In this document: positions 3,201 to 60,838 of the stretch, piece after piece | Position numbering within the stretch: position 1 is the first letter of the stretch | Layout: each line of letters begins with the position of its first letter | DNA from: Pocillopora damicornis | Taxonomy: Eukaryota | NCBI RefSeq assembly: GCF_003704095.1 | Contig: NW_020846078.1 | Span: forward strand, 248,001-312,000 | DNA: 64,000 bases | Reading direction: 5' to 3' | Made by a program: the position numbers and the translations under genes | The notes under the pieces: model-generated | The model's database searches: none | Seen by the model: the letters and a program-made list of their open reading frames with translations, nothing else | Told to the model about the DNA's origin: nothing

Positions 3201-6200
3201 CAATGTGGTTTTTCAGACGTAGAAAAAATTAATGCTAATGAATTAAAACACACACATATATTTGAATTATCAGCTATGTATACTTTGCCACCAGTCATAC
3301 AATTGTCCCTTGGCGGGAACATTTGCATACCTTGATAACTTCATGGAAATCTTCCAGTGAGTTTATTCGCCTAGAGCATATTAATTAATCTCATACAATA
3401 CAGGTGGCTGGATTTGAGCGCAGAAAATTGAATTTACCTGAAAACTGAAATTTTCAACAAGTAATCAACTGATCTCTTTTGCAGTTTGAAATAGCTGGTT
3501 TCAAATCTTCATCACGTGCCATTCGAATCATTTCTTCTTTGCTATTTCCCCTTCGCCCAAACTCTTAGTCGTTATATTTGAAAAGGATCAATCTTTCGGT
3601 TGATTATCCAGTGAATGTAAGATTTTAGATGTATCATGAGTCTAATGTTCCATAGCAGATTCTATTATGATTTTTCTTGAGGAGTGCTCCCATTACGCGA
3701 CGGTATGTTGTCGTTAGCTAGAGTATTTCATGAGGTAAAGGAATGTCACGTGAGACACAGCGTTACGTTCTTTGTCCTATCGTCATTTGCGGCACATTGG
3801 CCGAGGAATGGTGCGTTCAAGAGGTTTAGGATGACAAGGGGGGTCGGGAGGATGGGGTGGTGAAATTGAATTTTAAATAAAAGTCACGGAAACGCGAGGA
3901 GGTTTTTTTCTCTCGGAGGATTACTTTATTTCCTCTGGAAAATCTCTCGGCTTATAAAACACAAAATGAATTACACAAGGATTAAATAGGCGGTTTGCTT
4001 TTCGACGAAACATGCTGAATTTGATAGATTTTCTCGAAAAAGCTTGTAGAGGGTGTTTCCCTTTGTTTTCGTTCCAAACTCCCGTGATCTTTGGCCCAGT
4101 TACAATACCACCCAAAATAAAAATAAAAAAATGAAAAAAAACTTCAGCATATATATGCTTACACTCTTGGTTTACTTCCAACGCGGAGATGGTGACCGCA
4201 CGCAGTTCTTTTACTGCTTCACGGTAACTGCAGACAGCCAGAAGGTAAGGAATACATTACTATTAATAGCTGTCAGGTCACTAAAAGTATTGTTTGATCC
4301 ACACTCAATCGCTAAGATTAAAACCACGATATCTGAAGAGCCAATATTGATGCATCTTGTTTTGGTTAAGCAATAGCCATGTAGTGTATGTTCATACACT
4401 TACTTTCGTGCAGGAGGAAGCTTTTTCCTTCTCTTATTCCATTTCGGTGACATTTCACTGAGTTGATTGAACACTAGACTTTCGATTTCATTGAGACGTG
4501 TCGTCTTGAGTAAACAGGAATCTAAGTGAAGTTTCGATCACGTTTGTATTAATATAAAGCGCGCTTTCGACCATACCAAGGCCTTAGTCACCTCGTTATT
4601 CTTCGATATGCATTCCACGAGGGTCAACCTGGAAACTTTTTCCTCTTTTGTTTGTTGTATTTCACCATGTAGTTTACTTTTTTGTTTCTTTTTAGAATCT
4701 AAATTGAAGGTTTCCTATAGTTTTTTAACGATATTGGACGATTGCATAAGTATTAGAAAGCGTGACTTGGCAATCTTTCTACTTTAAGAAACTAACGTTT
4801 AAAACCAACACCCCATTGAGTTATTTAGTTTGCAGGGTGAAGATTACTAAGATTTCTACAAAGCGTTTCGTGAAAAATTGGATGGCCTGCGTTTTTGTTC
4901 AAGATATTAGTATACATATTTAGATAACCGAGTTTTACAAGTATTGTTTTCAGTGGACTTGTTTCGACTCTTGAAGATTTGGTTTTCGATTTTCGATTCC
5001 TGATGACGTAAAATCTAATAGTGGTAATGGGAAAATTAATTGTCAAGTCGTGACCTAATCACGCTGTCTTTTCCATAAGGCGTTTTTCACAGCGTTGCCT
5101 GTGCTGGCATGGAAATTACCAGGTTAATCAGATGGAAGAAAACTTTTGAACAGAATAGTAGATTTATGTTTGGGAAACCGAAAATCGTCAATGAGGAAGT
5201 GAAACTCATCAGAGGTACTTTCCCGAGGAAGGGAATTTATAACCAACATATACGACAGTCACACAATCGAATGCATTAGATCAGCAATATCGAAACTGAA
5301 AAATCACCGAAGTTCGAAACACCCTTGATGATGTAAGCGCCGGGCTGAGTTCCAAATGCTATGATGTCGAGTTTCAGGAGTATTACATCTTAGAATTGTC
5401 GACCAAACGCGGAGTCGGAAAATTTACCATCACTCGAATTTATACGCAGGTAAGCTTCGATGTAAATTATTTCGGCGCTGTCTTCTGATCTTAAAAACGA
5501 CGCGGTTTGGTTGAAGGGGGTTTTCTATGATTAACTTCCTTTTCTGGGGCCGAAGTTTCGATTTCCACCGAGGGGATGAATGTTCTGAATGATTCTGATA
5601 CAAACCTGCAACTAAACTGAAACAGTGTGTCCAAGAAAATGCCGCTAAACAAACGAATAACTGTATAACGTGGCAGAAATACTATAAATATTCCACTGGT
5701 ATTTTTTTTGTGTTACATGCGATATTGAATCTTGGCGGAAGTGATGTACTCAGTGTCAGCTAAACGCAAAGAGAGACAACAACAGTTTTTTTTTCTGTCC
5801 CTTTTACAAATGGTTTTGTTTTTTGTTTTTCGTTTAAATTGTATTTCTAGTTTAATGCAATTTTTTCTGACGTAGTTTCAATGAAGTCAGAAAGTTATCG
5901 TAATTTAAATACCGTTTGTTGTCAAACCTAACATGCAAATATGTCTTGCAGAATTTACATGCCACGCGTCACAGACCTTTGCAAAATATTTACTTTCTCC
6001 ATCAGGACGATTTATATTTATAATTTCGGGTAAATTTGTGTCACCTTTAACTCAAGAAAGTTGTTTAACATCGTTAGTATGTAAAACTGAAATCAAAGCC
6101 GCCCTAACCTGGTGAGCAACTTTTCACAAGTTTACTTTGGAGATACAACGTAGAAAAATATAGCGAGTGCTTCATAGACAAGTTTCCTCGTCAGGGAGAA

Positions 6201-7633: not shown

Positions 7634-7735
7634 AATCATTTTCTTTGCATGAACCACAAAAATTACTATCTGGCTATTTACATGTTTTTTTGTTTACACG
7701 TATCATGTGTTTTTTTCTTATTAGCGTGGAAAAGT

Positions 7736-10700
7736 ATGTCGAACTCATCCAATCAGCCCGCGTATCAACGTTTTGATACAGCAGAGATTCTGGCAGAATT
7801 CCTGGGTAAGATACTACAGAGATGTTAGTCAGTCTTTTGATCCCAGAATAACGATTTTATTTTACACAATAAAACCGTTATTGCAGTTCAGAGGCTGAGA
7901 AAAGGACAATATAAAGGGGAACATGGGTGCTTTTATCTCTTTTAGCTAATCGTATTTCCGTACTTATTTCCAAGCCAACTCCATCCCTCTGACATTTTTT
8001 TTCCTTGCCAATTGTGCGATATACCTCATGTAGAGGATTATTTAGCCCTCTACAGAGATTCTGATGGTCGTCAAGCTGCATAATCGAGTTTATTCGCTAT
8101 GCCATGTGAGGCTGTAGCTTGAAATCTTCATTTCAAAACTGGGACTATTCCTTCGAGAAGATGAAAAACGACGGCTGAAGTAAATATGTTAATTACATCA
8201 TAATTTGTGTTTCAAGCCTTTAACCAACAAAACTGGACAGTGTTTCATTTAGCTGTTTCGTTTTGCTCTCTTGCATTCAGCATTGAACCAGGCACTTTTT
8301 CCTATGGAGTTCAGGTATAGGGCCCGAGTCTAGTTTCACGAAAGCGAGGCTAGTTAGGCCGTTGACCAATGAAAGCTCAAGGCTTTACTACACGTGACGT
8401 GATTGGCTGCTGCGACTGACGTGATAGCACTGTTTCTTCGAACTATGACAATACTAAAATATGATTAATTCAATGATGTCTTCCATAGTTTTTGTAGCGG
8501 TTCGAAAGTCGACAGTAAACATCTTAAAGCTTTCTATTCGTGACTTGTATTATTATTCGGTTTGACATTTACACCCAAATATCCGTCACTGGATTTCAAA
8601 CTCTGGATCATTAGTTTAGCTTTGGATTTAAAGGGTGTAGAACGGAAAACAATGAAAAACCTCTGCATGGCTTTAGGTCAGTGGAGGAAATTGGCTGAAA
8701 GGTGCCATTTTTTGCTCACCCTGCTTTCTTGTCCTTTCCGTTAATAGCCGGAGAGTCTGGTACAAAACGAAGGCTGGTTAAAGAAGAAGGCTGAAAATTA
8801 GTGTAAAGTCAATATTAATGCTCGATTCGAAGTGAGCTACCGATAAAGTCAACTATGAGACATAGATATGTAACCATATTTTTTGGAACAGATAGGAATA
8901 ATATATTATTTGTACGGATGTAAAAGTATGAGGGGAATTTATTCTTAACTATTGTTGATTATTTTTACCAACTGTCCATGATATCTTTTTTTTATTCTCA
9001 TTTTAGACTCTCCTTCGGATCATCATAACTTGGTTACTACGGACTCTAGCCCTGTTGTATCGCCCAACTTTCTATCACAGCTAGTAATGCATAATGAACC
9101 ACAATACCTCAACCCCCTTCAGCCTGGTTGCCCCTCACCGCCAGACAGCGAAAGAACAAACACACCTTCTCCCTTTGCAACTCACACCGTTCAAACACAC
9201 AATACCCTCCCAGATGGGAACTTCGTTTGCGAACCCCTTATTCCGAGTGCTGGACCGTCCGGTGCGGATTTACGAGCGCCTTGTCAGTACCAGACTTTCA
9301 GCCTTCCGCGTGATCGTGTAGGAGGAACCAATTTTGTCCGATACTCAGATAGAAGAGTTCAGGTGACCCATGCCCATTGCAATGAAGCGAATATCAAGAT
9401 CCTTAATCCGCGGGCAGAATACGACAAAGTGCAGAGAAAGCACGGACATAGAGGGAAATTTTCAGAGCAAAGAGTAGCAAAAGGAAAGGTAGGGCTGAAG
9501 CCTTTTCTCGCGACAGTGCAAACCTGAGATTTGTTTTTTGATCGATCAAAAACTACAATCTGATTGGGTATGCTACTCGCTATCTATTACGTGGTAGATA
9601 GTGGGTAAATTAAGTGAGTAGAATAACGGTGTGCGGTTATAGACAAAATTAAAATAAAACCACGGCCCTGTCTCCTTGTTAAGTTTTAAACAAACAGCAG
9701 ACTTGAATACTATAACAAGTACTTTTTTCTGGTGATTTCTATTTTTTTTTCAGGCTTCGTCCTCGTTAGCTATTTAGCAATAGAAATCTCGAGTTGATGA
9801 GTTAATTGTTTTGAAAATATGCAGTGGTAAAAATTGTTGCCAAGCACTGTTTCAATTTTTTTGATAACAAGCTTGACAATTCTGGCTCAATGTGGCTCTC
9901 AATAAGTTCTTTTTAGGGTTCATTTTTGGCTGATTTCAGGTTGAGATGGAAATAGACACACAGCTGCCTCTTCGTCAACTAGAAGTTTATGTGTTGCGTG
10001 ATTTTGAAGCTGAAAAGAAGCTCTACAGTAAAGACCCAAAAGCATACGGAGTAGGAGAGATACGATTTCCTGAGAAGGATGTCCAAGAAATGAATACTCT
10101 TGGTACGTACAGATCAGTAACTACCGCGCCAAATGCTTTGCAAATACAGGGGCGAAATTTATTGAGATCCTTGATTGCTTATTTCGGTCAAAAATCGACT
10201 GAGTTAGAGTACTCAATTCTCCATCGATGAATTATCCCAAAAGTTACTCTTTCCCTGATCTCTCGGGTGAAACTCGCACATTGCCTCTTGGATGAAGAAT
10301 GAACAAAAATCTCATGGGTAATCTGCAGTAGTAAATTTGTAGCATAGCATTGGATATTTTCAAGGAGATCCCTCAGGTATTTGGAAATATTGTTAATCAA
10401 AGTTATCTAAAATGACTGAATATGGTTTATCTTAAGAATGAGGAGTCTACGGGGGATTCAGGCGTAGTGCTGTACCTTGTTTTCTCGCATTCTGTATGGA
10501 TCCACTTTTGGTTCTACTTTTGCTTCCGATTGGTTGAGTGGGTTAAGCAAGGGTCCTTAACTGATCAATGATAGTTGAAAAGCAAAACCAATGCGATCTC
10601 GCATTATATGAAAATTACTGTACTGGTGGTGGTGAAAAGGCTTCAATATGTAAATCTTAAAACATTTTCTCTCAGGTCAAAACTCCAAGTACGTTTGCAA

Positions 10701-13700
10701 AATCGACCTTGACTCCGTGTACAAAACAGAGGATGGTAGGGAGATTTACCGACTGGAAAAGACGAGAGGCTTAGAATTCAACCGATTCTTTCTAAAAGTC
10801 TTCCTCGAGTTAAACAATGGACAGAAGTTGGTCCTTTTCCCTTATGAGTTTGTACTAAAGAGCAGCAAGACCGTGAAAGGTAAGCACATGGATCCCCTAA
10901 GATTTCTTACAGCACCATACGCAGCATTAGTGTAAGCATCAAATAATATCTATTTACCTCTTGGAAATGTAGGAGGTAAATGTTAATAGTGATGATAATC
11001 GTAAGATCGTGATGTTTCCTCAGTCAGTGATGCAGTCATACTTAGAATAATGAAATTCGCGATACTTCCAACTGAAGTCAAATTTGAGACCACCTGATTC
11101 CAAGTAATTCTTTTACTTTAGAGCGCTTTTCGATTAAGTGCCGTAAAATTAAGAGCAAAGAAATCACAGCAGCAAATCAGAGCAAATTAAGGAAGAAGTT
11201 ACCAGAGCCTTCGAGAACTAAACATGAAGAAAAAACAGCGCGGAAAACGCGAGTTGTTGAGACGCCGTTGGTTCTAGTTTTGCATTTGATTGGTTGAGAA
11301 AATGGCGCAAATTTTCTGGACCAATCACAAAGAGAAGTACAACAAAACGTATGCAATCCTGACTTTTTTTTGACACTCAATTGATTTAGCATTGGGTTGC
11401 GGGAAACTCCCGACAGCTTGGCGTGTAAACTTGGTTTTCGCCACAAACATTTCGCACGTATACCAACCATTCTGTCATGACTTGAATGTAGACGTGATGC
11501 TTTTATATCAGTGATGCAATTGAAGATGATGCCTTTTGTTAAGCTTACTGTTCAGATGAAAGTTTTGATAGTGTGGGTTCACTCAATCGAACTTCCAAGG
11601 TTCTTGAAGTGAAAATTACCTTTGGTAGTAACTGATGTTGAAAAAAAACATCATTTTGCAATAGTTATTTCTTTCTTTGTGTGATAAAAGTTAAATTTGA
11701 TGGTAAAAGTGGGGTATTCGAATATTAAAGTGATGCGAGGGAGTTTTAGAATTCCTGAAGAGTATCCCTTAAAAGTATCAGTGTTTATGTATGCATCCTA
11801 GGAAAAGATGTATATTACCAACGGGTGTTACCCAATGCGTTGAAAATTTTGGATTGCGGTAACAACTGTTTCGTTGCTCACTCTTGTGTTACTGTAGACA
11901 CCACAAATGATACCAAAACCCTCATTTAAGCCCTTTGAAGATACGCTGATCACCTCTCCCGCGTTTAAAGTAGTTTTAATTCAATTCTATTTCAAAAGTT
12001 CCGAGGGAACCTCAAAATGTCCTCTCACCTCAAACAGCTTGCTCTTTAACCTCTCCTCGTCAAGGTCCTCCAGGTAAGAATGACCTAATTGTTAACGATT
12101 TTACGTCTCTAGTTACCTATAAGCTTAAAACATTTGATCATTATATCGGGGATATCTCGACGTATGGATAGTGAGGAGACGAGTACGAAAATCTTGAGCG
12201 AGAGCCATTTTCCGATATGATCTTTTCGTTAGAGGTGATGGCTCGAGAAAGATCGTGGAGTTATGTTTGAACTTAGGAATACTATTTCGTTTTAGAAATT
12301 TTTCCTGTAGTCACTAGAGTACTGAGGAGCATTTCATCGCCTGATGTGAGTCCTAACGTTTAACTTGGTCATTCATCACAGCTTTTTGGCCAGGAGTGTG
12401 ATAACCTGAGCTTTAGAGCTGGGGCATACTGAAGTTTCTTATTGATCTTACTCTTAGCCTCCAGATGAACTAGTGTCTTGAGACGTATTCGGAGAAAGCG
12501 AGACACCAAAAGGCGATCGGAGTCAGTTTTGCATTTGATTGGTCTAATATGAAACATGCGGTTTCAAAAGAGTTACTTTCGACGCTCCTTTGAGACGAGT
12601 AGTTTTTCCAAAGCTTAAGCTGAAGAACTGACCTTTTCCACCGTTCATTGAATCAAAATTACTTTGTGATTTATTTTCACGATTCCTACAGATAGCCGGT
12701 ATGAAAGCTTTATATGCCAACAAATCGAAGCGGATATAGCTAAGATAAAAGACCTCGAAGTTGAACAGATAAAAACAGCGAACCACGACATCGCTTACTA
12801 CGTCAAACGGCAGAATGAAAGTCAATTTGAGGAAGGTGACGTGGTGGGATTCTTTGAAAGAAAAACAGGAGGCACTGTTATCGATTTCTTGACCAGTGAT
12901 AATGCTCATGAAGCCCGGCTGGCTGGTGTAATAAGTAGGTCAGCGTACCTAGTCGGGAACACAGGGCAATATGACGAAGAAGAAGATGGTAAGTAACGGT
13001 TGTTGCATGTCGTGCAAACATAATCGATAGTTCGAATTTATAAAAAGGATCGGGTAAGCATCAGTGATTGTTCTCTATATACTTAAAGTAACTACGAAAC
13101 CCAACATTTTAGCAACGAAAGTCGCTTTTATGGATGTACAAGACTATGAAGGCTTAAATTCCATGGCCTTTTCTAGTCGCCTGTTTTTGTTCTTGGGATC
13201 GTGCTATACGTATGTTTTAAAAGGGTTGTTTTACCTTGTCTTTTTATTTTTAATTTAAACCTAGATATTTGTGATATTTTTCTTTGGCCATGTGAACGTA
13301 AGGGTGGGGGGGAAGGGACGGTCTAAGATCCCCCTGGAACCCATTTGATTTCCCAAACCCCCCCTCCAGCCGATGAATAACAACCGGTCCCTAACTCTGT
13401 ATCTTTGTAACACTCAGATGCTGATCTTGTGTGCATCATCGGACAGATTAAAGTGAAAGTCATTGGCGAAGTGACACCTGGACAACTGGTTTACGCTTGC
13501 CCCAGTAATAAGTTCCCAGGGGTGGCAATTGCCACACCAGAACAAGGTAAAAACAAATTGATATAATTAACACAGAGATATAGTTGGGTTTGTCTGTACA
13601 GTTACAGGTTCTATCAGCTCAGTGCCACTTGAAAAACCAACAACATCGTATTTTATCTCTGTGTGAGGGTATAGACAATGGAGATTACCCCGCCACCTTT

Positions 13701-16700
13701 TGGAGAGCTATCTAGACAGTGAAGAGGAATTTGAATCCGAGAAAAAAATTTTGGAGAAGAATTTATATTAATTCCTTCACCACATTCATAGTTATGCCTG
13801 GTTCATACACCATCATAAATTACATTTTTGTATCACTTTTTCTTGATTCAAAGAAAACTGTGCAATTGGCTACCGCCTAGCTACAATTTTAATCGCACAA
13901 TTTATAATTCTGGAAGGTGCTCCGGCGAACTTTTTAACAAAAAGATTCCATATTGCTGCGAGTCTGTTGAGCAATAGATCAAAGATGGTGTCTAAATGTT
14001 GTAAGAACCAAAAGGTGGCACACAGGACACAGCTGGGTGTGTCACTGATGTTCTTTCCACATAATGACGTTTTCTGTGGTCTGTTACTGAACAAACCCAC
14101 GTTAATATCGAATCTCTTTGTTTTAAATACTAACGGAGCAAAAAGTAGTTTATGGTGACGTCATCTATGACGTTGTCCTCCAATAGATCATGGGTAAGAA
14201 CCAATCAAAATGCGTGAATGATTGACCTTATTATATAATTCGTATTACATAGGTCAAAGTCTTCACTGGTTTTTTTTTTATCTTCTTTGATACAATACCA
14301 ACCAAACTAAGGATGTAATTATGAAACGAACGTTAATTCGTTTAATTTGTCTCACGATGAAAGAGTCAGGCTAATCAATCGTGTATTGATCGTAATTGAT
14401 ACACGATTAAAGAGGTCAAGATTAACCAGCCTGACCTTACATCGTGAGACAAACTATTGAACGTTCATTGATCTTGAAATTACGATGAACGACAACCTTT
14501 TTTGATGTAACATCTCTTTGATTCCCTTTTTTTCATTTAGGAGACGATCGACGAACCTTGATCGGCTATGCTATGGGTGGATCGTCTGGTCCTGGGGTTT
14601 CCAAGGTGGACTGCATTGTGTCTTTAGTACTGAGCATCGGTGCGCAGGAGCAGTTACGAGCGTTGGATCAAATGAGACTAAGTATCGAGGAAGTGAGGGA
14701 AAACCTGTACACTAGTATAGATACGGTTGGTTTTAGAATTGCAAGAATGCAAAGAGGCTGGAGAGGTAAGAGGTGTAGAAGAGATAGAGTGAAATAAACG
14801 ATCCAGGGCTCCTTATGTCACCATTAAAATTATTTTTCAGAGACAACTACTTTGATAAGTTTAGGATGAATTCTAGAACGTCGCCAACGCCTGCACTTGT
14901 TTTCTTTAACGGTGTTCTTCGCTTTTTTTTTCTCTTTGATTGACGCCAATTGCAAATGACATACTTACGAAATTTGGGCTGAATTTTCAAGATGCACAAT
15001 TTCTCGTGTAGTTCATTCCTAAAACAGTCAACTAAGGGTGGTGTTATAAGATGACATGTAACAATGTCCTGTGACCTCTTTCTGGGGACACGCAAAAATG
15101 TTTGGGAATGCTGTTAAATTAGGTATCCAAGGGTATATTATAGTTAAACAGTGACGAAATTCCACTGAACACGACTTCAGCTGACGTGAAGTCTGAGATG
15201 TCTGGAACTTTTGATAACAGGACACCACTTGTTCAACATCGCAGTACAAACCTAATTATACTTAAAGATGATTGGATTCGATTTTTCCATGATAGCATCT
15301 CATGGTGAGGTCCCTTCTAGTCTCTGAAAAGACTCTCCTCTCTTGTTTTAAAACTACTGCCACTACAGATGACGTTTCTACCACATGGCAGGGAACTATC
15401 TTAGTATATAGATATTAACCCTTTAACTCTCAGAGGTGATTAACTTATAACTTCTCCCTATAATATCCATACATTATCCAGCGAACTGGTCGTGAGAATA
15501 CTCAGGCTTATCAGGTACGAGATATTATAATGATCCAACGCCGAATTCTTGTAACAAATTTACAACGAAATGTGTAGCAGCCAGAGGGGAGAATTGACAA
15601 TCCAATTTTGGGAGTTAAAGGGTTAACAAAATATCTGAATGAGTGCGAGAAAGAAGTAGTTGTACGCTTGGCACCATTCAGAGTTCGGACAATGACACCA
15701 ATGCATAATGTTGTATTTTTTCATTTTTTAGGGTTGTGGAAAAAACTGCTTGCAGTAACTGTATTCCTGGCAATCGCATCTGCCGTTTGTGCCCTGATGT
15801 TAGCTCCAAGTTCTCCATACGTCAAAGCCAAGTGCAGAGCTAATAGTATTAAAGGCCACTCGCTCACCTTTAAATTCTATCCTAAGGATTCGGACGTAAG
15901 AATTCTTTTTCTATTAGAGCGCTTTCCGATTTAGTGTCGCAGAATTAAAACGAAAGTGACCATAACAGCCAATCAGAGCGAAAGAAAATATTATAGGGAA
16001 CCAATCAGAATGAAAGTAAAAACAAGCTAAATGCCTAAAGCGCGGGGAAACGCGGTTTACTTCGCCGTGCGACTGGTCGTAAAAACTCGCATTTCCCTAT
16101 TAGCGCCTCTTATCAAATAAAATGATTACTCGTGTTTTCCCGCGTTGCAAGAAGTTTGCTCGTTTTTACTTTGAGATCTCAGTGGTTCCTTATGGCATTT
16201 TCCTTACACTGAATGTGTTTGGCCATTTTGGACCCTTTTTTGTGGCCTTTTCGAAGCTCAATCGAAATTCGCTCTGGAAAGAATTTATAATAATTGACTT
16301 AAATGAAAAATATTCCAAAATCACAAAGCTGGGTTGTCACGCGAGCTCGTTTGTCCTCGATTTTCGCAGGATCTTAAATCACGAAGCTAACAAACACAAT
16401 GATTTCAGTTGTTTCTCTAAATCTGACTTTTCTCTGTTTTGTTTCCAAGGACGAAGTTATTGTGAAAGGGTTGGAGTTTACATGGGAAAAGCTGAAAAAG
16501 AAATTAAGCCTGAGATTCGACAAAAAAAATGGAACAGGTAGGTATTTAAACATTTGATCTGCTCTTTTACTTTTCCCTCCGATTTACAGGATTGACCAGA
16601 ATGTTATTTCCTCTACCAATTTTAACACCCTGTTAAGCAAGCAGGTAAAGAGAATTATTAAACAGACCGTGCGGAAAGCTCCCTAATCCTGTGCTCAAGC

Positions 16701-17383
16701 CAACACTCGAATGTTGTGTTTATGTCTGGTTATTGAGCAAAAAGTTGGGTGAAACACGCTTAAACGTTGCAAAAAAATAAAAAATGGCTTAAGAGGAATA
16801 GATGAACGAAAAGGAAATTGGAGTTCCCTACTGAGCAATAATGGACCCTAACACTGTTTAGTTGTTGTTGTTTTNNNNNNNNNNNNNNNNNNNNNNNNNA
16901 TTGATGGCATTGCAACTGCTATTTCCATTATTATTTATAAATATTTTCAAAATGATCAACAAGAAACGAAAGATGAATTTTAACGAGGTTCTATTTAGTT
17001 CTGTTTGCTCCAAGCACTGACTTACGTTATCAAATTTGGTTGGAAATTCTGTTTCCAGTTCTGGTAAAAATTTTTCAAATGACCCCAAACACAACGTAAC
17101 CACATATAAGCTCTGTAATTTGTTGGATGTATTTCACGGGTTCTGGTAATAAACAGTAGGCTGTTGTAACTCTGCAGAGGAATACCGTTACTTTCTGAAC
17201 AAGATTCGCTGTGAAACCGGTGGAATTCGTTCTGTTGCATCATGGCTTGATCCGTCACCAGTGGAACCCAAGGTCAATGTGCTTGCCGTAGATCCTGCCT
17301 GTAAGGAGGTCTTCTACCACAGTCGGAAGGATGGGAAATGGCAACAGTACCAAGCTGTGGAAGACGTTCATTGTAATCATTAA
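7736..17383 (+). CDS. Uncharacterised ~700-aa single-pass membrane protein with a MYRF-like layout: putative DNA-binding beta-sandwich, Peptidase_G2-like chaperone domain, coiled coil, TM, luminal domain
   Basis: Eleven GT-AG exons join in one frame: 7736-7805, 9007-9488, 9940-10102, 10676-10879, 11999-12073, 12692-12988, 13418-13546, 14541-14765, 15732-15895, 16450-16537, 17178-17383 (2103 nt = 700 aa + TAA). Motifs: DIAYY...FEEGDVVGF...AGVISRSAYLVGN...VCIIGQIKVKVIGEVTPGQLVY...PGVA...IGYAM. TM segment LLAVTVFLAIASAVCALML. An acceptor at 7724 implies an upstream UTR exon (candidate donor at 5449/5450). The gene model is well supported; the function is inference. Confidence 0.85.
11120..11385. 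repeat. Interspersed repeat, CCAATC-rich family; partial relatives at ~10500-10620, 12490-12590, 15916-16273, 30850-31105, 38381-38508 and 41106-41233
   Basis: Recurrent motif tagagcgctttt...gaaaacgcgag...ttttgcatttgattggttgagaaaatggcgc...ggaccaatcac in several places. Confidence 0.7.
13932..14238. repeat. Interspersed repeat with internal inverted segments
   Basis: ttttaacaaaaagattc...gtctgttgagcaatagatca pairs imperfectly with tggtctgttactgaacaaac...gaatctctttgttttaaa; ends ccaatcaaaatgcgtgaat...ttattatataa. Confidence 0.5.
14328..14466. repeat. Nested inverted repeat (hairpin / fold-back MITE)
   Basis: Outer arm tttgtctcacgatgaaagagtcaggct pairs with agcctgaccttacatcgtgagacaaa; inner arm aatcgtgtatt pairs with gatacacgatt; gaacgtt/aacgttc at the ends. 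Confidence 0.75.
15415..15626. mobile_element. piggyBac-like MITE with intact TTAA flanks
   Basis: TTAA-CCCTTTAACTCTCA ... TGGGAGTTAAAGGG-TTAA: 14-bp TIR with one mismatch and TTAA on both sides. Confidence 0.85.
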
Positions 17384-26053: not shown

Positions 26054-29000
26054 ATGCGTTGGTGGCTAGCATTAGTGGTTAGCCTTGTAACTGTTTTTCA
26101 CCTGAAAGCTGAATCAGAGCCTGGGATACAAGATGAGTTGCGTAATATCAAGCAGTATTCTACACATACTTTATTGGGTATCAGCTGTGATCTATTTTTG
26201 AACAGATATACCGTCAGCATTGAAACTATTCGCTAAAAACTTGTGCCGGTGTTTTATAAATGAGTGGGCTGTCAGCTATTCTGCAAACAGATAACATCCC
26301 TACACACCCATCCCAAATAACCATTTATGACTTTATTGTCAGGAGTGTCCCAGGAGCTGGTTTTAAACGACTGCCCAGGAGTTTTAATAGTACTTTGACA
26401 AGAAGCAGCAAAAGAAAAGGTATACCGTATATTCAGCTAAAAAGGTAGCAAGATAGCTTAATCTAAACAGAGTTATATATTTTTTCCAGAATGAAAAGGG
26501 AATTTCAGTATTCTCCCTCATTTTTGTGTACGGGAACCACACCTGTCACCCGTGAGTTGTACCTTTTTTCGGTTGCACGGGAACCATACCTGTCACCCGT
26601 GAGTTGTACTCTTTTTTGCATGGGTACCATACCCGTCACTCATGAGTTGTACCCTCTTTTGCAAGGGTACCATACCTGTCACCCGTGAGTTGTACCTTTT
26701 TTCGCGTTTTGGTTTATTTCGCCTTGGNNNNNNNNNNAGTCGTCTTAAGTGAGGCCATTGAAAATTGTATGTCAGTTAACGGCTAATAGAGAGGGATGAT
26801 AGGAATTTACAGAGCCTTGTGGGCAAACCGACATCTTTGAGGATGTTTTAGTTGGACTGCATCCTTTTTCATCAGCTAATTACAGCTCGTAAAATGATTA
26901 TAACGACATCTTTTCATTCCTTTGAATAGCAGCCCAGTTTCCCGACGGATCGTACGCTAAAGTATCTCATATTATCGGCAAACGACTGAAACATTACGAT
27001 AAACATGTTCGCCCAAACGACACGGGTGAGACTTGTTGGAATATATATATATATTTTTGTTGATATATTTGACTTATTTTCTTAACGTTACGAGCGGTTC
27101 AGCAGTTATCATATTACATGCAATTTTAGTATTTCGTGCCTGCGCATTTGTCAGTTGTTTAAGGTCCACGAATTTTCAGATTCTTCAGTACTTTCGTTTC
27201 CTTTTGTCTAGAAACCTCAAAGCTTGCCACACAAGTGTCAGGGGTCGTTTCAAAATCCTTAAACCCGTTACATTCTATCGTCAGCATGTATATTCTCCAT
27301 ACGGTTTGTGTTGCTGTTGGTGCTGACAAGGGGGAATTTGTTGAAAAATCCGGCAAGAGCTGCTTTAGTTGGCGCGTGATCATCTCCTTAATTCTCGTGA
27401 CCTTAACGTGTGCTTCTGGAGTGATATTCGACGGATAAATTAGATGCTCGTCACTCGTAGGGGTCAAAGAGACACAACAAATTTAAACACAGTCATCATC
27501 GGACCATTTATTTTGTAGGACCTCCTGTTGAAGTTCTTATCGAGTTTAAACTAATGGCATTTGGAAAAATCAGAGAAGAAGATATGGTAAGTTGAAAGAA
27601 ATTTCACTGCGATTCAATTTCTCTAGTAATCAGTACCACGTGAGAGCGAAAGAGAACGAATCTAGAAAGAGCTTCAGTGCCATTAAGGCATCACAGCTTT
27701 TCATGAGTAAGTCTGCCAGAAACAGGACGAACTGGTATTTTGGTAACCCGTTATATGCTCGCTTGTATACAGAAAGGAAAGTTGGATCGGCATCCACCAT
27801 CCTCCTGCTCCAGTTATGAACAAATTAGTGGAAAAGTTTTGGGAAGATGAAAGTCAAAAAATATCCTTGTTTTGTTTATAGCTATGTAAGGTAGCATTTA
27901 TGGGCTTCATTCATAGCACAATTATTTAACAATTATGTCATCTTTCACTTTAATAAGGACTATACAATCGACATATTCTTCAGACAGTGGTGGAAAGATC
28001 CTCGATTGGCGCATGGACAAGATAAAGTTTTTAACGCCGCATTAGATCCTAGTAAACTGGGAAAAGGAATATGGACGCCCGACACGTATTTCCGAAACGT
28101 AAAAAATTCAAATTATCATTCAGTCAGTAGAGATAACATGCGACTGAGGATTTCTAAGGATGGAAGCATTTATTACAGTGCCAGGTAAATCAGTGATTCA
28201 ACGTAGAGTAACAAGGGCGTAGACCACATTTTCTTGTATTGGTGTCTTACATCAGCGCCCATCCGGCAATTAGAGGCATACCAGTTGTCATTTTACCATT
28301 GCACATCACTTTTCCCTAAAATATCTTTTTTCTCTAATACATTTGGGTTGAGGGGAGGGGGGTGGGGTAAGGTAAGATCTCCTTGTTGTCTGCCATACAA
28401 CTCTTAAGATGTTGGTTCGGAGAATTTGTGTTGTATCTACTAATAAATCCCCAAATTTATATTTATTGTTATTCTCATCAATCGTCTGCTTGATATTGTA
28501 TGGATATTGTGAGGAGAAATACCATCTTGGTCACTTATGGGAGTTAAAGGGTTAAGGTACTTTTGGAATTTCTGAACCCCTAAATGAAACTACCACAGAG
28601 CTACCAGCTGCTTATAGTAATAAGCCCACCCGCAGCCCACCCAAGAAAAAGGATGAAAGTTGATTCGTCACTTGCTCCTTCTATCAGGATAACTCTCACT
28701 GCTCTGTGTGATATGGATCTAAGGCTGTTCCCTCTGGACACTCAGAACTGTGATTTAGTAATAGAGAGCTGTAAGTATATAGACTTTAAAATACACGTTC
28801 TCATCGGCACAGCGTTCAGAAATTAGTAAACTTTTCAGTTTAACGCACTTTTAAATTGCGGTGAGGTGCGAGTGAAATGAACTACGTACTAAACAGTGCT
28901 AAACAGTAACAGTTCAAGAACAACACATACGGTACAAAAAAAATTTAACCTGATTAGATCTTCTTATGGTGAGAGCGACCTTCAGCCACTTTTTTGGAAT

Positions 29001-31436
29001 GTAAGCATAATAGCAGATTGCTTCGGGAAGAACTGTTCAAAAACTTATAATAATGAGGTATTTTCAAACAGACCACCGTACTGGTGACGCTCTGACGAAT
29101 AGCTAATGCTCGAAACGTCAGCTTTAGACACGCTTTGCACTGGCCAATTACTTTATCAACTTGGTCGATAAAACCAAATTATCGTGTTTTACTTGCCACC
29201 GGTGCAGCACCACAGTTTCTTTTGAAATCTATCCCCTTTAAGCCTTTATGGTTCATCGCCTTCTCCTCCTGCTGGTGATACTTGTTATCCTCTTCGGCCA
29301 GTTTTGTTCGTTAATGATAAGAATTTCAGTGATAGCTCCAACTTTGTTATTGCAGATGCATACACTGTGGACGATGTTATCTACAATTGGAACAATCGAG
29401 GCTCCAAGGCTATCGAGGTGTTCGCAGCTGAACTTGCTCAGTTTGATATGCTACAGATCGTTACATCCAAGAAAGCTAATACTAATAGCAAAGGTGAGGC
29501 TTTTAGAGGCTTGAAGCATTTCTGTGGAGGGGGAGCTAGAGAGAAGGGGAGTACGGTGAGGGAGACAAGGGGGACAAGGGGATAAGGGGACAAGGGGGAC
29601 AGGGGGACAGGGGGACAAGGGGACAAGGGGNNNNNNNNNNNNNNNNNNNNNNNNNNNNNNNNNNNNNNNNNNNNNNNNNNNNNNNNNNNNNNNNNNNNNN
29701 NNNNNNNNNNNNNNNNNNNNNNNNNNNNNNNNNNNNNNNNNNNNNNNNNNNNNNNNNNNNNNNNNNNNNNNNNNNNNNNNNNNNNNNNNNNNNNNNNNNN
29801 NNNNNNNNNNNNNNNNNNNNNNNNNNNNNNNNNNNNNNNNNNNNNNNNNNNNNNNNNNNNGGGGACCGGGGGACCGGAGGAGATAGGTAGAAATGGAGAA
29901 GATATGAAGGGGCCGGGTTTTTGTGTCGGTGGTTTCCCTGTCCGCCTAGCATAGAGAAACCTTTAAGCCTAACTTTCTACACTTTTTTATCCTCCGAAGG
30001 GTCCTTCGACAGTTTGAAGGCAACCTTCACACTCAAACGTCGAACAACGTACTTCATTTTTCAACATTTCATTCCTTCTGCGTTCCTCGTTTTCCTCTCG
30101 TGGCTTAGTTTCTGGATAGACAGACACGCTGTTCCTGCACGTGTCTCACTCGTGATCACGTGCATACTCAGCACCATGTTCTTATTCGGATCAGTTAACA
30201 ACAGTCTCCCTCGGATCTCGTACCTGAAGGCAGTAGATTACTATTTAATATCGTCGCTTACTTTTATCGTGTGCTGTATGGTGGAGTATGTGTGTGTCTT
30301 AAACTTCACGGATAAAGCAGCATCTTTCTTACTGAGGAGTCAAAGTCTGGCGCCGGTGAGTGTCATCAGTTGTTTAATCTTTGTTGAAATGTCAATATAC
30401 TTTCTCCTGTCCGCAAATGAACTTAACTTACCCGCAAATCCTATTGTGTCTGTGTTTAAAAATATACCAGCTATGTTGCTGGCTTAATGTCTGGAATTTG
30501 GGTGTGCAAATGATAGAAACTATTTCTTTTGAAGTCGGAATTCCTTCGACGAAATGTCTAGTAAATTATAACAGGTGAACGTTCCTTCACTGATCATCAG
30601 GCTCGTGTGGACGGAACAGTCGTTGAATTCATTCACACGGGGACATAGCTTTGGTCATCGCTTTGCGCTATTTTCAAATCTCATTCCAGAAGCTACTTTT
30701 ACACCTATCTTTGTCTGCATAATTTTAAACAATGCATAGCTTTAAAGCGATGGAGCGATGGAGCGATGTATTGCTGTGATTTATTGTTGCCATGCCTGTT
30801 GGTCGTAAAGTTTGTTTTGATCAACCAAACTAATCATAGTCCAGAGTAATCTTTAACTGAGTGTCGAACTGGTACTCCGGGATTGGTTTGGTTTTATTGT
30901 ATTTAGTTATGTGATTAGTACAGAAAACTCACGCCACTTTCTCAACCAATCCCATCTTGGTCACTCGTGTTTTCCCGCGCTTCAGGCAGTGACTTGTTTT
31001 TACTTCGTCTTCTCATTGGCTCCTGGTGACATTTTCCTTGCTGTGATTGGCTGTTGTGATTTCTTTGGTTTTAGTTTAACAATACTCAATTGCAAATCGC
31101 TCTAATGTTCAATTAATAATTTCTCTTCAGCCTCCAACACCAAATCCAACAAATTCTATCGCCGAGATGATGGACCAGCAAACGTTCAACTGTAACAAAG
31201 ACCGTCCTTTGAACGGAGTCGCAGGAGGCTTGTCTCTAAGAAAAGGTGTTTTTCTTCACGAAAATCTTTCTGCATCGAGGAAAAAGACTCCTTGCGCGAG
31301 CAATGCCTTTTTGGACGGTCTACCCACGAAACAGTTACCTCCTCATTACATTGACCAGTACGCGCGGAAAATCTTTCCACTTCTTTACGGACTGTTCAAC
31401 ATTGTGTACTGGTCTTACTATCTTCCACGACGATAA
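26054..31436 (+). CDS. Cys-loop ligand-gated ion channel subunit, GABA-A/glycine receptor-like (anion-selective type), ~453 aa
   Basis: Exons 26054-26141 (signal peptide, weak donor, least certain), 26930-27025, 27519-27586, 27958-28184, 28688-28770, 29356-29493, 30000-30355 and 31131-31436 join in frame (1362 nt). Motifs: YDKHVRP, FFRQWWKDPRL, IWTPDTYF, Cys-loop CDMDLRLFPLDTQNC, ESYAY, SWLSFWID, PAR before M2, LPRISYLKAVD, M4 IDQYARKIFPLLYGLFNIVYWSYY. Confidence 0.93.
26526..26702. repeat. Minisatellite, ~40-bp unit x4
   Basis: Unit tg(c/t)acgggaaccatacctgtcacccgtgagttgtacctttttt repeated four times next to an assembly gap. Confidence 0.9.
27259..27471. mobile_element. piggyBac-like MITE, reverse relative of 557-768
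   Basis: The reverse complement reads tttgacccctacgagtgacgagcatctaatttatccgtcgaatatcactccagaagcacacgttaaggtcacgagaattaagg, closely matching 563-650. Confidence 0.75.
28372..28555. mobile_element. piggyBac-like MITE, left end degraded
   Basis: Ends cacttatgggagttaaaggg-TTAA; interior matches 54209-54419. Confidence 0.7.
29085..29240 (+). mobile_element. Penelope-like element-derived remnant with a degenerate minimal hammerhead ribozyme motif
   Basis: gct-CTGACGA-atagctaatgctc-GAAA-cGTC-agc at 29089-29122, followed by tatcaac...gataaaaccaaattatc...gcagcaccacagtttct. Confidence 0.55.
29559..29880. repeat. G-rich minisatellite (GGGGACAA/GGGGACAG/GGGGACCG) spanning an assembly gap
   Basis: Tandem 8-9-bp units on both sides of the N run at 29631-29860. 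Confidence 0.9.
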
Positions 31437-32393
31437 CTCTATGTTGATTAACAAGACTGAAAGGAATGAATGCTGAGAGCACCTGACGGATGCGTGTCGT
31501 GGGGATGGATGCGTGGTGCTTCACACCACCCCTTATGTCATAAGCGCTGCAATAAGATGAGCAAGCTGAGATACTGAGGTTCTGTGTTGGCCTTCTTCAA
31601 TTACTCTCAGAATCAGGGTTACAGAGACACGCGAGGCGACACGCGGCGGACACGCAAGGTATATGTTATACCTCGCGAATACACGCTGTATGTAATCTAT
31701 ACGAGAACAAAATTCGCTACACGGGACTGATCTTAGAATAACTGTAGAGGAATTGGATTAGAATTAAGGTCTTTAGGAGGGTGTCAGTCTCAAAGCCTAG
31801 TGTTCCCTTTCCTTGCATTATTCGCCAAAATTTCTTTGAGTTTTGCTTTTACCTTTTTGACCATGGGTGAAAATCATATTTTCGAGAACGTATTAAAGGA
31901 GATGGAGGAAGTTTACGTTGGAGGTAGAGGCAAATCATCCAGTAAATACGCAAACTTGATGTTTGCATTCCGCTTTCTACATACTCAGAGTACGAGGCAA
32001 AACATTTCTATTAGCAATTTTCTCTCTCGCTGCACGGAATGTGATCTCAACATTTTCAATTTTAATGGCGCAGGCGTCAAGGATATTTGAGATTTTATGT
32101 AGAAGTAATGCGCATTGCCTAGAAATAAAGTTATCCGAGACATAAATATATTTGCATACTGTAATAAGCTAAGCCCTTCTAAATTCGATCAAATGATTGC
32201 CCGGCTTAAGTCATATCAAGAAGCAGACATGATAAGCTGGTGAAATCTTATTCGTCCTGCCTTATCGTTAAAAGCCGTACTGTCGATTGGAATAGCATAC
32301 AATTACAACCCTGCTTTCACAAACTAATGTTGCGAGCCTTTATCAATACCGTAAAAGGCAAAGTAAATAAAGTTAAGTCTCGGTAAAGCTATT

Positions 32394-46900: not shown

Positions 46901-49032
46901 GGTTTCTGAGCTATTGTTGGTAATGCTATTAATAAAGTTTGCATAAAAGCTACTGGATTTACTTTAATCCTGTCAAAGTATTTGCGTTTGTGATTTCTGT
47001 CATTAATTGCGTGCACCGAGTTTCAATTTTTCATAAATTCGTCTGCGTTTCGTTTGAGCCGATTCTTTTTCTCGACTCAAGATTCAACACTAATCGTATT
47101 TGAAGTCAAGAGCCAAAAATAATTTAACCCGCCGCAAAGGTTAGTTATGTTCATATCATAGATTTTCGTGCGCAGCCTGGATAGGGGAGAATCACAGTAA
47201 TCATTACCAGATAACACGCTTTCTTTAGCTCTTGCATGTATGTCGATCATGCCATAAATATTTGTCAAGGACCTTATCTTCGGTGTTTCCGATCAGGATG
47301 AATTTTGTAGACCGATCCGACGTCAAAGCCCATACACCTCCACCAGTTTTAGGCGTCATTCATGTGGGGAGAAGATTACGGAACACATAAGGACGTTTGA
47401 AACCAATTTTTCAAATGAAGCGGATGTACTGCAAGAGCTGCAAATGGCAAAGCTTTGTCGAATTTTCTGCACGTTATGATGCCACAAACAACTTTTGTAA
47501 GCCACTTCAGCTTTCATTTGGCAAGAGTGCTTTGATTTTGCTTTGCGTGTATCAAGTAATTTATCATCTTCTTGCGATCATCAAGTAATATTCAACGATC
47601 GGTAACCATTGATTGATAAAATCAATTTCTTTGAAGTACAGTTTTTGAGCAGTCTTATCTTTTAACTGCTTGAATTAAAAGCCTCGCAGCTTGACTTACC
47701 TGTTGACTCCTACTGAGAGTGCGGAATCTAGAGAAAAGCGAGCTGATGCAGATCAGTTTGGAGAAGGAAAAGATTTCAACACTGAGTGAGTCAGATTCGA
47801 AGTTCAAACTCTTTTTTTTTTTGTCGCTATTGCATTATTGTGATGTCCTTTTGTTCCCTCGCAAATTCATATTAAATCAAATTCCTCCTGTTTGTAGTCT
47901 GGCTTCAAAGACACATCGTCTGTTCAGTTTACATAAGCTCTGTGTTATGCCCGTCAAAATGGAAAAAATTAAGAGCCCAAATGTCAACATTCAAAGTTTA
48001 CTTTTCGCCGCACAGACCTAAAAGCAATCTGACATCGATGTTTGAAATGAGAACATATTATGGAGGAAGGGTTTGCCAAATTCACCTAACACCTTAAGTG
48101 TACGAGCACGGTGAAAGCATTCAAGTGTGAGAAAATAGGATACTGGGGTCGGAAAAGAAAACAAACAGTGCCTTTACATTTTAGATATTTACCAAGGTTC
48201 ATCATAACAGACTTGTCTTTACTGGAGTAAATATCTGTCTGACAGAGATCATGTTTAGTCTGATTTTGCATTGCTGGGACCTCGTCTGAAGAACAAGGAT
48301 ATCTTTTTGATTTTTCAGAGATGAAAATTTTCAACTAACTCATAATAAAGAGAGATTCGAACAGACTTCTTACTATAGTATTTCTCGCCTGAACCACTGT
48401 AATAAGGTTGAATTCACAAACAAGTGTGATAAGAAAGTAAATTGGTTTCTAAGCCTATTCATCTCGACAATAAGATTTCATCTCTATGCAATTTTTGATA
48501 GAATTATCATATTAGATTGATCTTTACCCTTTATTGCTGCAAGTGTTTAAAATTAAAAAGCCTTTTAAATCTCGTTGTTCCACCAAAAGCTTAATGTGAA
48601 TGTTTTCTGTCCCTTTATTGATAGCCATGGAGTGTTGACCTTAATTGATTTAGCAGTTTAAAATCAGTAATCAAAGAAAAGGTTTAAATTAGCTTTTAAG
48701 GTATTTTGAGCCTTTGGGGTTTCCGGAAACCAATTATTACCTAAGCTACGAAAGCACTTGTTGACCTCGAAGTCATTTCCATAGCTGATCAAAACAGAGA
48801 TTATCTCGTCGCAGGCTGAGCTTGTTCAAAGATAGAGAACGAGTAAAATGTCTTTGAGTATCTGGAGACTTTATTGAACGCAGTACGTTGAGGAAGTTGG
48901 TCCATTTTTCTAAGTTCCTTTCATTATCAATGTTTGTATTTATTCAGTTATGCAGATGAGGTTGACGTTTAGCTTTTGTTTCGCTTCTTGTTCACACAGG
49001 CGCATCAAAGGCACCGGTGGTAGGTATTCAAC

Positions 49033-50064
49033 ATGTCTGAGGCAGGAAATATCACAGGTGCTCCCCCTACTGGCATAAATCCTACGCCGAATAGCATCGT
49101 TGCAGCTGTTTTCGTCGGTATATTGATCTTGGTGACTCTATTTGGAAATGTTCTCGTCTGTATCAGTTTCTACACTTTTCCCAACCTCAGGACGATCTGT
49201 AACTATTTTATTGTTAGTTTAAGTGTGGCAGATATTTTGGTTGCTCTGCTTGCTATGCCGTTTTGGCTCATTGTTCAGCTCAACAATACACTGTGGCCAT
49301 GGCCTCGGTTAAAAGAGGGGTTGTATTTCTTCTGGAGCTTCATCGATATTTTCTGTGGTACAGCCTCCATTATGAATCTTACAGCGGTCAGTATCGATCG
49401 AATGTTGGCAATCGTGACACCTTTTAAGTATCCAAAGATATTAACTACGAAGAGGGTCTTAATTATCCTCGCACTGGTTTGGTTGTACTCAACGACCATC
49501 GCATGTCTACGACTGGCCAATTGGCAAAGCTACGGCCTTTTTGCGGCCTTTGCAAGTTTCTTTCTTCCCTTGTCACTTGTAATCGTGATGTACACTGTCA
49601 TCTTTATTGTTGTCAAAATCCAAGTGCACAGAATCGGATCAGCTGGAGGGAAGGAACACGCTAACGAGATGAAGGCAGCAAAGACCATCTTAGTTGTCAT
49701 TGGCGCTTTCGTCGTTTGCTGGCTTCCATTTTTCGTTATTGTGGTAGGCCATGCAACAGACAAAAACTTTACTTACCCCATGGAAGTTTACAACATGTTC
49801 AAGTGGATGGAATACTTAAATTCGTGTTTGAACCCTGTGATATACACTTGTATGAACCGCACATACAGGCGAGCATTCAAGCGACTCTTTAATCGGGTTT
49901 ATCTTGAGCAAACTGTAGGGAACAGCCGACGGGGTTCCTCTGTCAGTATGTACCTCAGTAGACGAGGATCTGCGATCAGTGGCTACATGAGCCAACGTAA
50001 GCATCGTGGATCTATCGCCCATACTGCTGTACCCAACATGGAGGCGATCGAAAGTGAAAGTTAA
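49033..50064 (+). CDS. Class A (rhodopsin-like) GPCR, biogenic amine receptor-like, 343 aa, single coding exon
   Basis: Seven hydrophobic helices. Motifs GN (TM1), SLSVAD...MP (TM2), DIFCGTASIMNL with Asp3.32, DRM, W4.50, FFLP, KAAKT, CWLPFF, NSCLNPVIY. Confidence 0.96.
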   Translation: MSEAGNITGAPPTGINPTPNSIVAAVFVGILILVTLFGNVLVCISFYTFPNLRTICNYFIVSLSVADILVALLAMPFWLIVQLNNTLWPWPRLKEGLYFFWSFIDIFCGTASIMNLTAVSIDRMLAIVTPFKYPKILTTKRVLIILALVWLYSTTIACLRLANWQSYGLFAAFASFFLPLSLVIVMYTVIFIVVKIQVHRIGSAGGKEHANEMKAAKTILVVIGAFVVCWLPFFVIVVGHATDKNFTYPMEVYNMFKWMEYLNSCLNPVIYTCMNRTYRRAFKRLFNRVYLEQTVGNSRRGSSVSMYLSRRGSAISGYMSQRKHRGSIAHTAVPNMEAIESES

Positions 50065-52112: not shown

Positions 52113-52302
52113 ATTTTGTTACAATCGTGTATACAATAGTATAATGTTTTTTGAGTACTCTTGATGAAGCAGGGTAATGAACAACGTCCATGAAAGCCGT
52201 CTGTGACTCCAACATGTGGATACTGAGGATTCAAATGTTACACGTCTCCGTCTGCAACCAGACTTCATTGACTATGAAAATATATCTCTTCATTTCACTG
52301 AT

Positions 52303-58300: not shown

Positions 58301-60838
58301 TCTATATTATGCAACACTTCATCCCGAGGTGATGGTGCGTCGTTCGATATCGTCTCCCAAACGTTCTTTCCGTCAGTCCTGGCCGATATAAGCTCTGCAT
58401 CACCTCCCCCTAAGTGGTATAGAGTCGCTGCCCAGTCTGTTGCATCAATCAGTCCGGTGCAAACACGGTTTTTCTGCTTGATGAGATCATTAGCAGTGTA
58501 GACAAAACCAACACCTTTCACCCCACCCTCCCACAGGGTGTCTTTGCCTGCCCGGAAGGGGAAGTTTGAGCCAGCATTCCTATTCCAGAAACAAAATCTG
58601 CCAGTTGACAAGGAACCGAACGTAGTAATAGCTAACAACTAATTCTTATTTGAAATTACACGTGATGGTTTGAAATGTTTGACATTAAGAGAAAAGAAAT
58701 CTACCACGAACTCAATTCATGGACTCCATACACTGTCACTTCGATTACCGGTCACTTTTCCGACATGTCAACACGCCTACATTTCAACTTGCAGACAACC
58801 AACTCGCCAACACCACTTGTCAACTTGCCACCTCAGGTTAACTCGCAAACACCAGTGGTCAACTCACCGACGTCAATTTGCCGACAACTTTGGTCAACTC
58901 GCCGACACAAATCTTTGTTTACTCGATTTGTGACGCTAAAGAACTGTTATGTCCTCTTTGAAAACGGAGCTAATATTAATTTACATTCGATTTGATAATT
59001 GTTGTAAATTTTCTTTTAATTGTCCAATGTCGGGTTCAAAGAATATCAAATGTTTAAAACTTTTTGCGAACCACACCAGTAGTAATGATTAGTGGATGTA
59101 ATTACCAGTTGAATCCATAAGGAGCTCCACCGTTGTCAGTGGTGAATATGATGACAGAATCCTGTAGCATTCCTTTATCTGCGAGTGCCTGCTTCACTGC
59201 TCCAACCGATTCGTCCAATGATGTTACCATGGCAGCGTATTTTTGTCTTCTTTTGTCTTTTATAAAACTGAATTTCTTAGGAAAGACCGTAAATAACTGA
59301 TCATTGAAACAAATTTTATGATAGATGTATTAATATTAATCATTAAAAATTGAGAGAATACCCATTAAATTTTATTCCCTAAAACTAATAATATTAAATA
59401 AGGACAACTTAAGCTGATTTAGTGCCGGTATGGTGTTTTTTTTCTGATGGACCTAAATAGACTTCACATATTTGGTTAAAGATGCAACGTATAATAGTCT
59501 GGTGAATAAAAATAAACCTATAGACATTGTGTCTATAGGATAAAAACCTTGTTTAAAATTAATTTTAGTATGCTCGAATCAGATGATGTCTACGTTTAAT
59601 GAATCAAATTAGTATTTAGCTGGTTCTATTACCTCAATAAGATGTTTTGGTGCCTGCAAAGGATCGTTCTTATTGGCTGAATGCGCTGCTTGGTGAGCGA
59701 GGTACAAAAACATTGGTTTAGAATTGTCGTGAGCATTGATCTTTTTTATGGCCTCATGGGTAAAGAGATCCGTGGCGTAGACTCCATCTCTTCTGATTGG
59801 CTGGAGCATGATAGAATAATGACAGTTAAAGTGTAGTGACAAAAATCTACTTATTAGGATCGGAAGATATCAAAATCTTTCTTACTGTTTTTGCCACTGC
59901 CTCTTGGTTTTACATAAGCTAAAATGGTTAGCATTCAGTGGGAAATTAGAGTGGCATGTAGAGGAGAACGATCTATTTTTCGTTTGACTTTTTTATTTCT
60001 GTTCAAGTCGTATACTTTGCCTTTGCCTACCTTCTCGTTATCTCGAAGATCATAGCCCCAGTAATCCTCAAAAGAGCTGTGATCCCAGTAATCCTCTTTC
60101 GCACCCAAGAATCCGAAGAAAGAGTCGAAGCCTCGGTACAAAGGTGTATACTCCTTAGTGAAATATCCAAGATGCCACTGTAACGAAAAAGAAAGTTAGG
60201 CCTCACTTCTTATCACCCACCATTCTCTTATCTTTCAAGTACTAGATGAGTTCAAAGCGAGCAGAACATAGAACTGTCGTAAATAATTTAAATGTCGTGT
60301 AAAGTTTATGGTACAAGCTTATTTGAGCTGTACCCTGCGTGTTCATTACACAACTAGAACGCCCAATCAATTAAGTTTGACACGTGTATGCTGTGCACTT
60401 GCGTACTTTTCCAACCGCGTGAGTCTGGTAACCCAGGGATTTGAGATACTGCGCTGTCGTTATTTCCTTCAGCGGAAGACCATAAGGCTGTGCGGCGAAG
60501 ATAACGAAATGTTGAATACCTAATGACGAGGGAAGAGACATTTCCATGAGCTTTGATTCCCAAAATTATTTTTAACGCTAACTCAGTTTTTTTTTTTGGA
60601 TGAAGCGACTGTCTTGTCTGATCTAGATCTAAATTATACTTACTATAAGGATCCACAGTTACTTGTTAACAAACACGTGTTATGATAAACTTTGTTTGCA
60701 AAGTCGCAAAAGACATAACATCACCTTGCTCCTGTAGTTGTCAATTTATCTATGACCTTACTTTTAATCTATCATGCATCATTTTACATTATTCTGTATT
60801 GCTTTGATTCATACGTTTTGCAAATCAGTCAGTTATGT

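Follow-up and report, generated by a model that had tools for sequence, protein, structure and literature searches.

What kind of protein is encoded by the gene that starts at position 7736 of a 64,000-nucleotide stretch of the Pocillopora damicornis genome (contig NW_020846078.1, positions 248,001 to 312,000; hereafter, the window)? A sequence-only reading had placed here an orphan putative p53/NDT80/RHD-like DNA-binding domain, an interpretation that our analysis partly supports. The domain belongs to a real cnidarian family, apparently not previously described, and is followed by a predicted phage-type trimerisation domain and a predicted membrane helix, in a layout resembling that of the transcription factor MYRF. 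The gene lies on the + strand and has 11 coding exons, from the ATG at 7736 to the stop at 17383, encoding 700 aa; all introns are GT-AG and there are no internal stops. The predicted protein is identical in 669 of 699 residues to an uncharacterised ortholog from Pocillopora verrucosa (P0001). RNA contigs skip 8 of the 10 coding introns in all four runs (X1-X4) and introns 15895/16450 and 16534/17175 in three of the four; for intron 12073/12692, just one imprecise joint, from X4, is found among the joints listed (23 more exist). The contigs derive from polyA/oligo-dT libraries of four separate studies and are informative on splicing, carrying no expression level. A 5' non-coding exon (4798..5449, start approximate) is covered by an X4 contig over 4798-5447, which joins 7723 with GT..AG at cut +2, and the same joint is found in X1-X3. 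Coding exon 1 (7725..7805, RNA contigs) aligns to residues 1-23 of P0001.

The protein opens with a Pro/Ser/Thr-rich, likely disordered region (aa 1-136; P+S+T 0.32), for which mean identity among nine orthologs is 0.30. The predicted Ig-fold domain follows (aa 137-306), with a mean identity of 0.56 versus 0.30 and 0.26 in its flanks, the latter value being that of the linker at aa 307-333, which is Pro/Ser-rich and corresponds in the gene model to coding exon 5 (11999..12073). The middle domain (aa 334-503) is again conserved, at 0.56-0.68. It is followed by a long helix, predicted to form a coiled coil and encoded together with the end of the middle domain by coding exon 8 (14541..14765), and by one hydrophobic segment, a predicted single transmembrane helix at aa 554-572 (~15746-15802, within coding exon 9, 15732..15895; hydropathy 2.8, with no upstream value above 1.32) with basic residues on its N-terminal side. 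The Cys-containing C-terminal domain, predicted to be lumenal, is conserved at 0.57 and confidently folded in the structure prediction; it is encoded by coding exons 10 (16450..16537; RNA contigs, structure prediction), where an N-x-T site equals aa 630 of P0001, and 11 (17178..17383; RNA contigs, gene model), with the 3' UTR continuing to at least 18500. No signal peptide is found in the 700-aa protein, and the sequence predicts a type II membrane protein with the N-terminus and Ig-fold domain in the cytosol. The transmembrane helix is likewise predicted in 14 of the 16 family members bearing the phage-like domain.

The basic and closing segments singled out by the sequence-only reading are both present on the + strand, the former in the final part of ORF 8982-9527 and the latter within ORF 10654-10935, and belong to one spliced frame across coding exons 2-4 (9007-9488, 9940-10102 and 10676-10879), all supported by RNA contigs. 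The domain itself starts from ~9345 in exon 2 and is identical to that of P0001 in 161 of 170 residues; its limits had been drawn at aa 115-310, whereas the folded part spans ~aa 145-303 (window ~9369-10869). An Ig-like beta-sandwich of the ~150-200 aa size class is predicted, in line with the proposed fold; neither NDT80 (PF05224) nor Rel (PF00554) is matched. Although no diagnostic motif had been recognised, the family has motifs of its own, namely, Y-x-K-x-Q-x-[KR]...S-x-Q-R, an invariant Arg204, D-L-D-S-V-Y, Y-x-L, an invariant Asn274 and S-x-x-F-x-L-x-S-K. The first of these marks a conserved basic beta-hairpin (aa 162-180; 9420..9476), which is likely the DNA-contact element; Arg204 lies at 9997 in exon 3, encoding the middle of the domain, and exon 4 contributes its end, with D-L-D-S-V-Y, Y-x-L, Asn274, the closing strand with F297 and the basic tail. 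Conserved basic and polar residues gather in the N-terminal loop and the C-terminal tail (K164, Q166, K168, Q178, R179, R204, N274 and K300-K303): positions 164 and 168 are K/R in all aligned rows and position 179 in 89%, and 34 of the 38 full-length domains carry a net positive charge. The stretch QRKHGHRGK, put forward for testing as a nuclear localisation signal (NLS), is not a classical one. Among ESM features, COE, LAG1, SPT23/MGA2 and p53 domains are listed, each below the 0.9 mark; Foldseek gives weak Velvet and p53 rows, with the top-50 VIA lists taken up by generic Ig chains, and a BFVD fold search returns nothing under E 1e-3. No CSL, COE, NDT80/MYRF or Rel chain is among the structural matches listed, an absence that does not exclude these families. 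Because several weak leads converge (ESM, the conserved basic residues, members that stand alone or carry a zinc-finger-like tail, and a profile score to CSL), we infer that the domain probably binds DNA, through the basic hairpin.

Which of the known Ig-fold factors is closest? The family profile scores 9.9 and 8.2 bits against the CSL N-terminal domain of the same genome, over the last 40 residues, with 2 of 5000 shuffles reaching each score; the CSL sequence was joined across exons and picked after the fact, making this a lead. For MYRF, Rel, COE and p53 of this genome, the coding exons score under the non-coding background. The likeness to the CSL/RBPJ/Su(H) N-terminal domain (LAG1-DNAbind, PF09271) concerns the closing ~40 residues (8-10 bits), ESM features (0.76-0.82) and, by eye, an N-terminal hairpin of the form K..Q-[KR]...E-[KQ]-R-hydrophobic. 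By contrast, the beta-trefoil and TIG domains of CSL have no Pfam match in 41 family members, and the domain that follows in the coral protein is a predicted beta-tulip. Global HHalign to CSL yields a probability of ~1%, LAG1-DNAbind has no Pfam match, and no CSL chain is among the fold matches listed. The true Su(H) is encoded on another contig, and genes for COE, Rel and p53 likewise lie elsewhere in the genome. Descent of the domain from the CSL N-terminal domain is conceivable, with slightly less than an even chance. SPT23/MGA2, which are membrane-tethered, COE/EBF, Velvet, p53/p63/p73 and Rel have an Ig-type sandwich in common with the coral domain and appear in weak ESM or Foldseek rows, but none is a significant sequence or structure match, and the family lacks conserved Cys/His zinc ligands, IPT/TIG and ankyrin domains. 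For p53/p63/p73, there is no PF00870 match and no Cys conserved in at least 70% of the family; for Rel (NF-kB/NFAT), the R-F-R-Y-type recognition loop is absent, the genome's Rel exons do not score and PF00554 finds another locus.

The middle domain begins in coding exon 6 (12692..12988), where aa 334-363 are predicted to form a trimer-intertwined, triple beta-helix-like segment, and its second beta-tulip half is encoded by coding exon 7 (13418..13546; RNA contigs, fold comparison). Its predicted fold matches best the D4 domain of phi29 gp12 (peptidase G2, PF11962; PDB 3GQH, 3SUC), then beta-tulip cement folds. With D4, it shares the tandem beta-tulip fold and the Asp that follows the cut: Asp364 (at 12787) aligns to gp12 D692 and is Asp in 29 of 29 cnidarian rows. 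D4 ends the phage chain, whereas the coral domain is internal and followed by a coil and a membrane helix. Phage beta-tulip cement and decoration proteins (Pam3, XM1, TW1 gp56-like, phi29 gp8.5 base, E217 gp24) are stand-alone capsid proteins with Z below that of gp12 D4. PF11962 scores below the cut-off against the domain (HHalign 16.6%, pairwise E 0.0015), and its search of the Pocillopora genome gives no candidate. Trimerisation is predicted with a score of 0.89 versus 0.01, which may be reached by likeness to solved trimers, and with inter-chain i to i-5 contacts over residues 80-109 of P0009. Since no phage sequence relatives were found by tblastn, and 226 pattern matches in viral contigs yielded 0 confirmed, no donor phage can be named.

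We consider it about an even chance that the protein is a precursor of a membrane-tethered, trimeric transcription factor with an Ig-fold DNA-binding domain that is freed by an outside protease. The 700-aa chain would be made as a membrane-anchored precursor, held by the type II helix and trimerised through the beta-tulip domain and the coiled coil, with the phage domain acting only as a trimerisation chaperone. Three Ig-fold domains would thus be presented to bind DNA through their basic hairpins, and activity would await the cut that frees them from the membrane. An outside protease is favoured over self-cleavage of the gp12 type, given that Tyr stands in place of the phage Glu in every case: all 9 phage domains read D-x-[AG]-E, and all 29 cnidarian rows D-x-[AG]-Y (Tyr367, at 12796). 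The Glu in question, gp12 Glu695, was reportedly found to be catalytic by Xiang and colleagues in 2009. The ~50-residue insert of the phage domain is also absent. A full analogue of MYRF, in which the trimer would cut itself just before Asp364 by a changed chemistry (built on the S-R-S-x-Y motif with Asp and Tyr), the released DNA-binding fragments staying together as a trimer through the triple beta-helix, is rather unlikely in face of these losses, even though Asp and Tyr are equally invariant, Arg162/Ser163/Tyr165 of the S-R-S-x-Y motif are conserved at 90% or more, and the intertwined segment lies ahead of the site, as in MYRF and tailspikes. The same low likelihood attaches to the most far-reaching version of this idea, namely, an undescribed cnidarian transcription factor family with its own Ig-fold DNA-binding domain that captured a gp12/G2 autochaperone independently of MYRF and releases itself on a lumenal signal by a new Asp/Tyr cleavage, amounting to convergent MYRF-type signalling.

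Alternatively, the Ig-fold domain could be a cytosolic protein- or lipid-binding module, and the protein a single-pass receptor or adaptor, also trimeric, whose signal would come from the lumenal or extracellular domain with no release. Generic Ig domains being the best structural matches, the conservation of the lumenal domain and the absence of an NLS, of a Pfam DNA-binding match and of the catalytic Glu all fit such a role. However, the conserved basic surface, the stand-alone and zinc-finger-bearing paralogs, and the ESM, Foldseek and profile leads toward Ig-fold transcription factors argue against it, and we regard it as improbable, on a par with self-cleavage.

How, then, does the precursor of the preferred reading relate to MYRF? 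Two papers present MYRF as a membrane-bound factor of type II; its trimerisation is brought about by the phage-related ICA domain, likely through a triple beta-helix, and the same domain makes its cut at a Ser-Lys dyad (PMC3742443, PMC3742440). The coral protein, in part by prediction, resembles MYRF/MYRFL/MrfA in its Pro-rich N-terminus, Ig-type domain, triple-beta-helix segment, phage tailspike chaperone, coiled coil, type II helix, lumenal domain and trimeric state. The modules differ: MYRF has an NDT80 DNA-binding domain and an S74 ICA, neither of which is matched by the coral protein, whose chaperone is of the gp12-D4/G2 beta-tulip type and which lacks the Ser-Lys dyad and a classical NLS. 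No PF05224 (NDT80/PhoG) match is found in the coral protein or its family, and the sole match in the genome is at L038 (G000:C2509:570185-573283), which probably holds part of a canonical MYRF gene: its exons include the ICA cleavage motif P-S-D-x-R-x-K, which is not conserved in the family studied here. The MYRF-like layout has likely arisen independently, when a cnidarian ancestor took up a phage tailspike chaperone of a second kind. Derivation of both modules from the NDT80 and S74 ICA domains of a MYRF paralog, to which the similar domain order and type II layout might point, is very improbable and largely refuted by the gp12-type fold, S74/ICA chains being absent from the match lists, and by the canonical MYRF at L038, whose exon does not score with the Ig-domain profile.

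The Ig-fold domain is no orphan, as had been supposed. With a profile built from 8 orthologs and 17 paralog exons, 328 clusters are matched at E<=1e-3, the number falling to 162 at 1e-10; the best 150 of the 328 were listed, and among 30 looked up, all 18 with an organism name are cnidarian (stony corals, anemones, octocorals and the jellyfish Rhopilema). Twelve further copies with both domain halves are present in the Pocillopora genome (L015-L031), in two tandem clusters (G000:C1007:31,900-166,400 and G000:C2374:150,200-192,300), each near a contig end. They represent a lower bound drawn from 20 stretches (~198 kb) of these two contigs, giving at least 13 genes in the genome. What follows the Ig domain is the middle domain and a membrane segment in five copies, a C-x2-C-x12-H-x5-C motif in four and nothing recognised in three; among 41 aligned members, the corresponding numbers are 16 with the phage-like domain, 3 and 22. 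In the four paralogs, the zinc-finger-like motif is C-terminal, conserved and accompanied by a basic run (L018:689-1033, L019:5275-5643, L029:4073-4438, L031:8271-8777); no Pfam match is found in P0051, P0054 or P0055. Five looked-up Nematostella members and likewise three Stylophora clusters are apparently grouped, which suggests an old conserved gene cluster; the window gene and its Nematostella ortholog are located apart from it. In an unrooted tree of 38 rows (three fragments left out), a supported clade (99/97) holds the orthologs of the window gene, including Nematostella LOC5513327. The phage-domain label requires 6 changes on this tree, at least 3 forced by starred branches, with some of the rows that stand alone possibly being truncated predictions. 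The very divergent, long-branched P0102 and P0120 could lie at the edge of the family or represent its occurrence outside cnidarians. In P0198, an older Nematostella model, a family member is fused to a ~700-aa upstream region, which we take to be a tyrosine-recombinase-like repeat element; this is probably a gene-prediction merge, the newer model P0058 being without that region. Pfam searches with exon ORFs, P0001/P0002, 10 orthologs and sets of 30 and 41 members yield no row that passes the cut-off (the top one is Phage_cement, at E 9e-4, in 2 of 41), nor do PHROGs or PDB sequence searches find a match, and our literature search, outside of which lay supplements and subscription journals, found no paper with any of six family gene ids or on the family. 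Contamination, a viral insert or a spurious frame, suggested at most by the phage-like domain, is virtually excluded by ten introns spliced in RNA contigs from separate studies and by the Nematostella ortholog clade, with no phage sequence match.

Within the gene, 12 extra bases precede the stop, at window 17376, in RNA runs X3 and X4; they equal the four extra C-terminal residues of P0001 and reflect an allele or species difference. An assembly gap (N run) lies at ~16,875-16,899 in intron 10, and intronic high-copy repeats at ~11,270-11,340 and ~15,420-15,630 show very high summed RNA contig depth with many loose ends. Elsewhere in the window are exons presumably of a Cys-loop ligand-gated anion channel subunit of the GABA/glycine receptor type (~27,900-31,440, +), a single-exon 346-aa ORF that we take to be a rhodopsin-family amine-type GPCR (49,024-50,064, +) and exons presumably of an arylsulfatase B/I-type sulfatase (~52,300-60,200, -). 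A second assembly gap, at ~29,630-29,860, is flanked by a short tandem repeat.

In MYRF, the textbook example, a membrane-bound transcription factor of animals is activated by a phage tailspike chaperone put to new use. If our proposal is true, the coral gene would be a second case, assembled independently with another phage chaperone and another DNA-binding domain, and the design would have evolved twice. A recent screen for membrane-bound regulators, which is Pfam-based and mainly covers vertebrates, would miss the coral protein (PMC13294678). The finding would also add to the transcription factor repertoire of cnidarians a sizeable candidate family, clustered and extending from corals to anemones, octocorals and one jellyfish, that is invisible to Pfam-based lists, and the proposal can be tested directly in Nematostella, on the ortholog LOC5513327 and the clustered paralogs.
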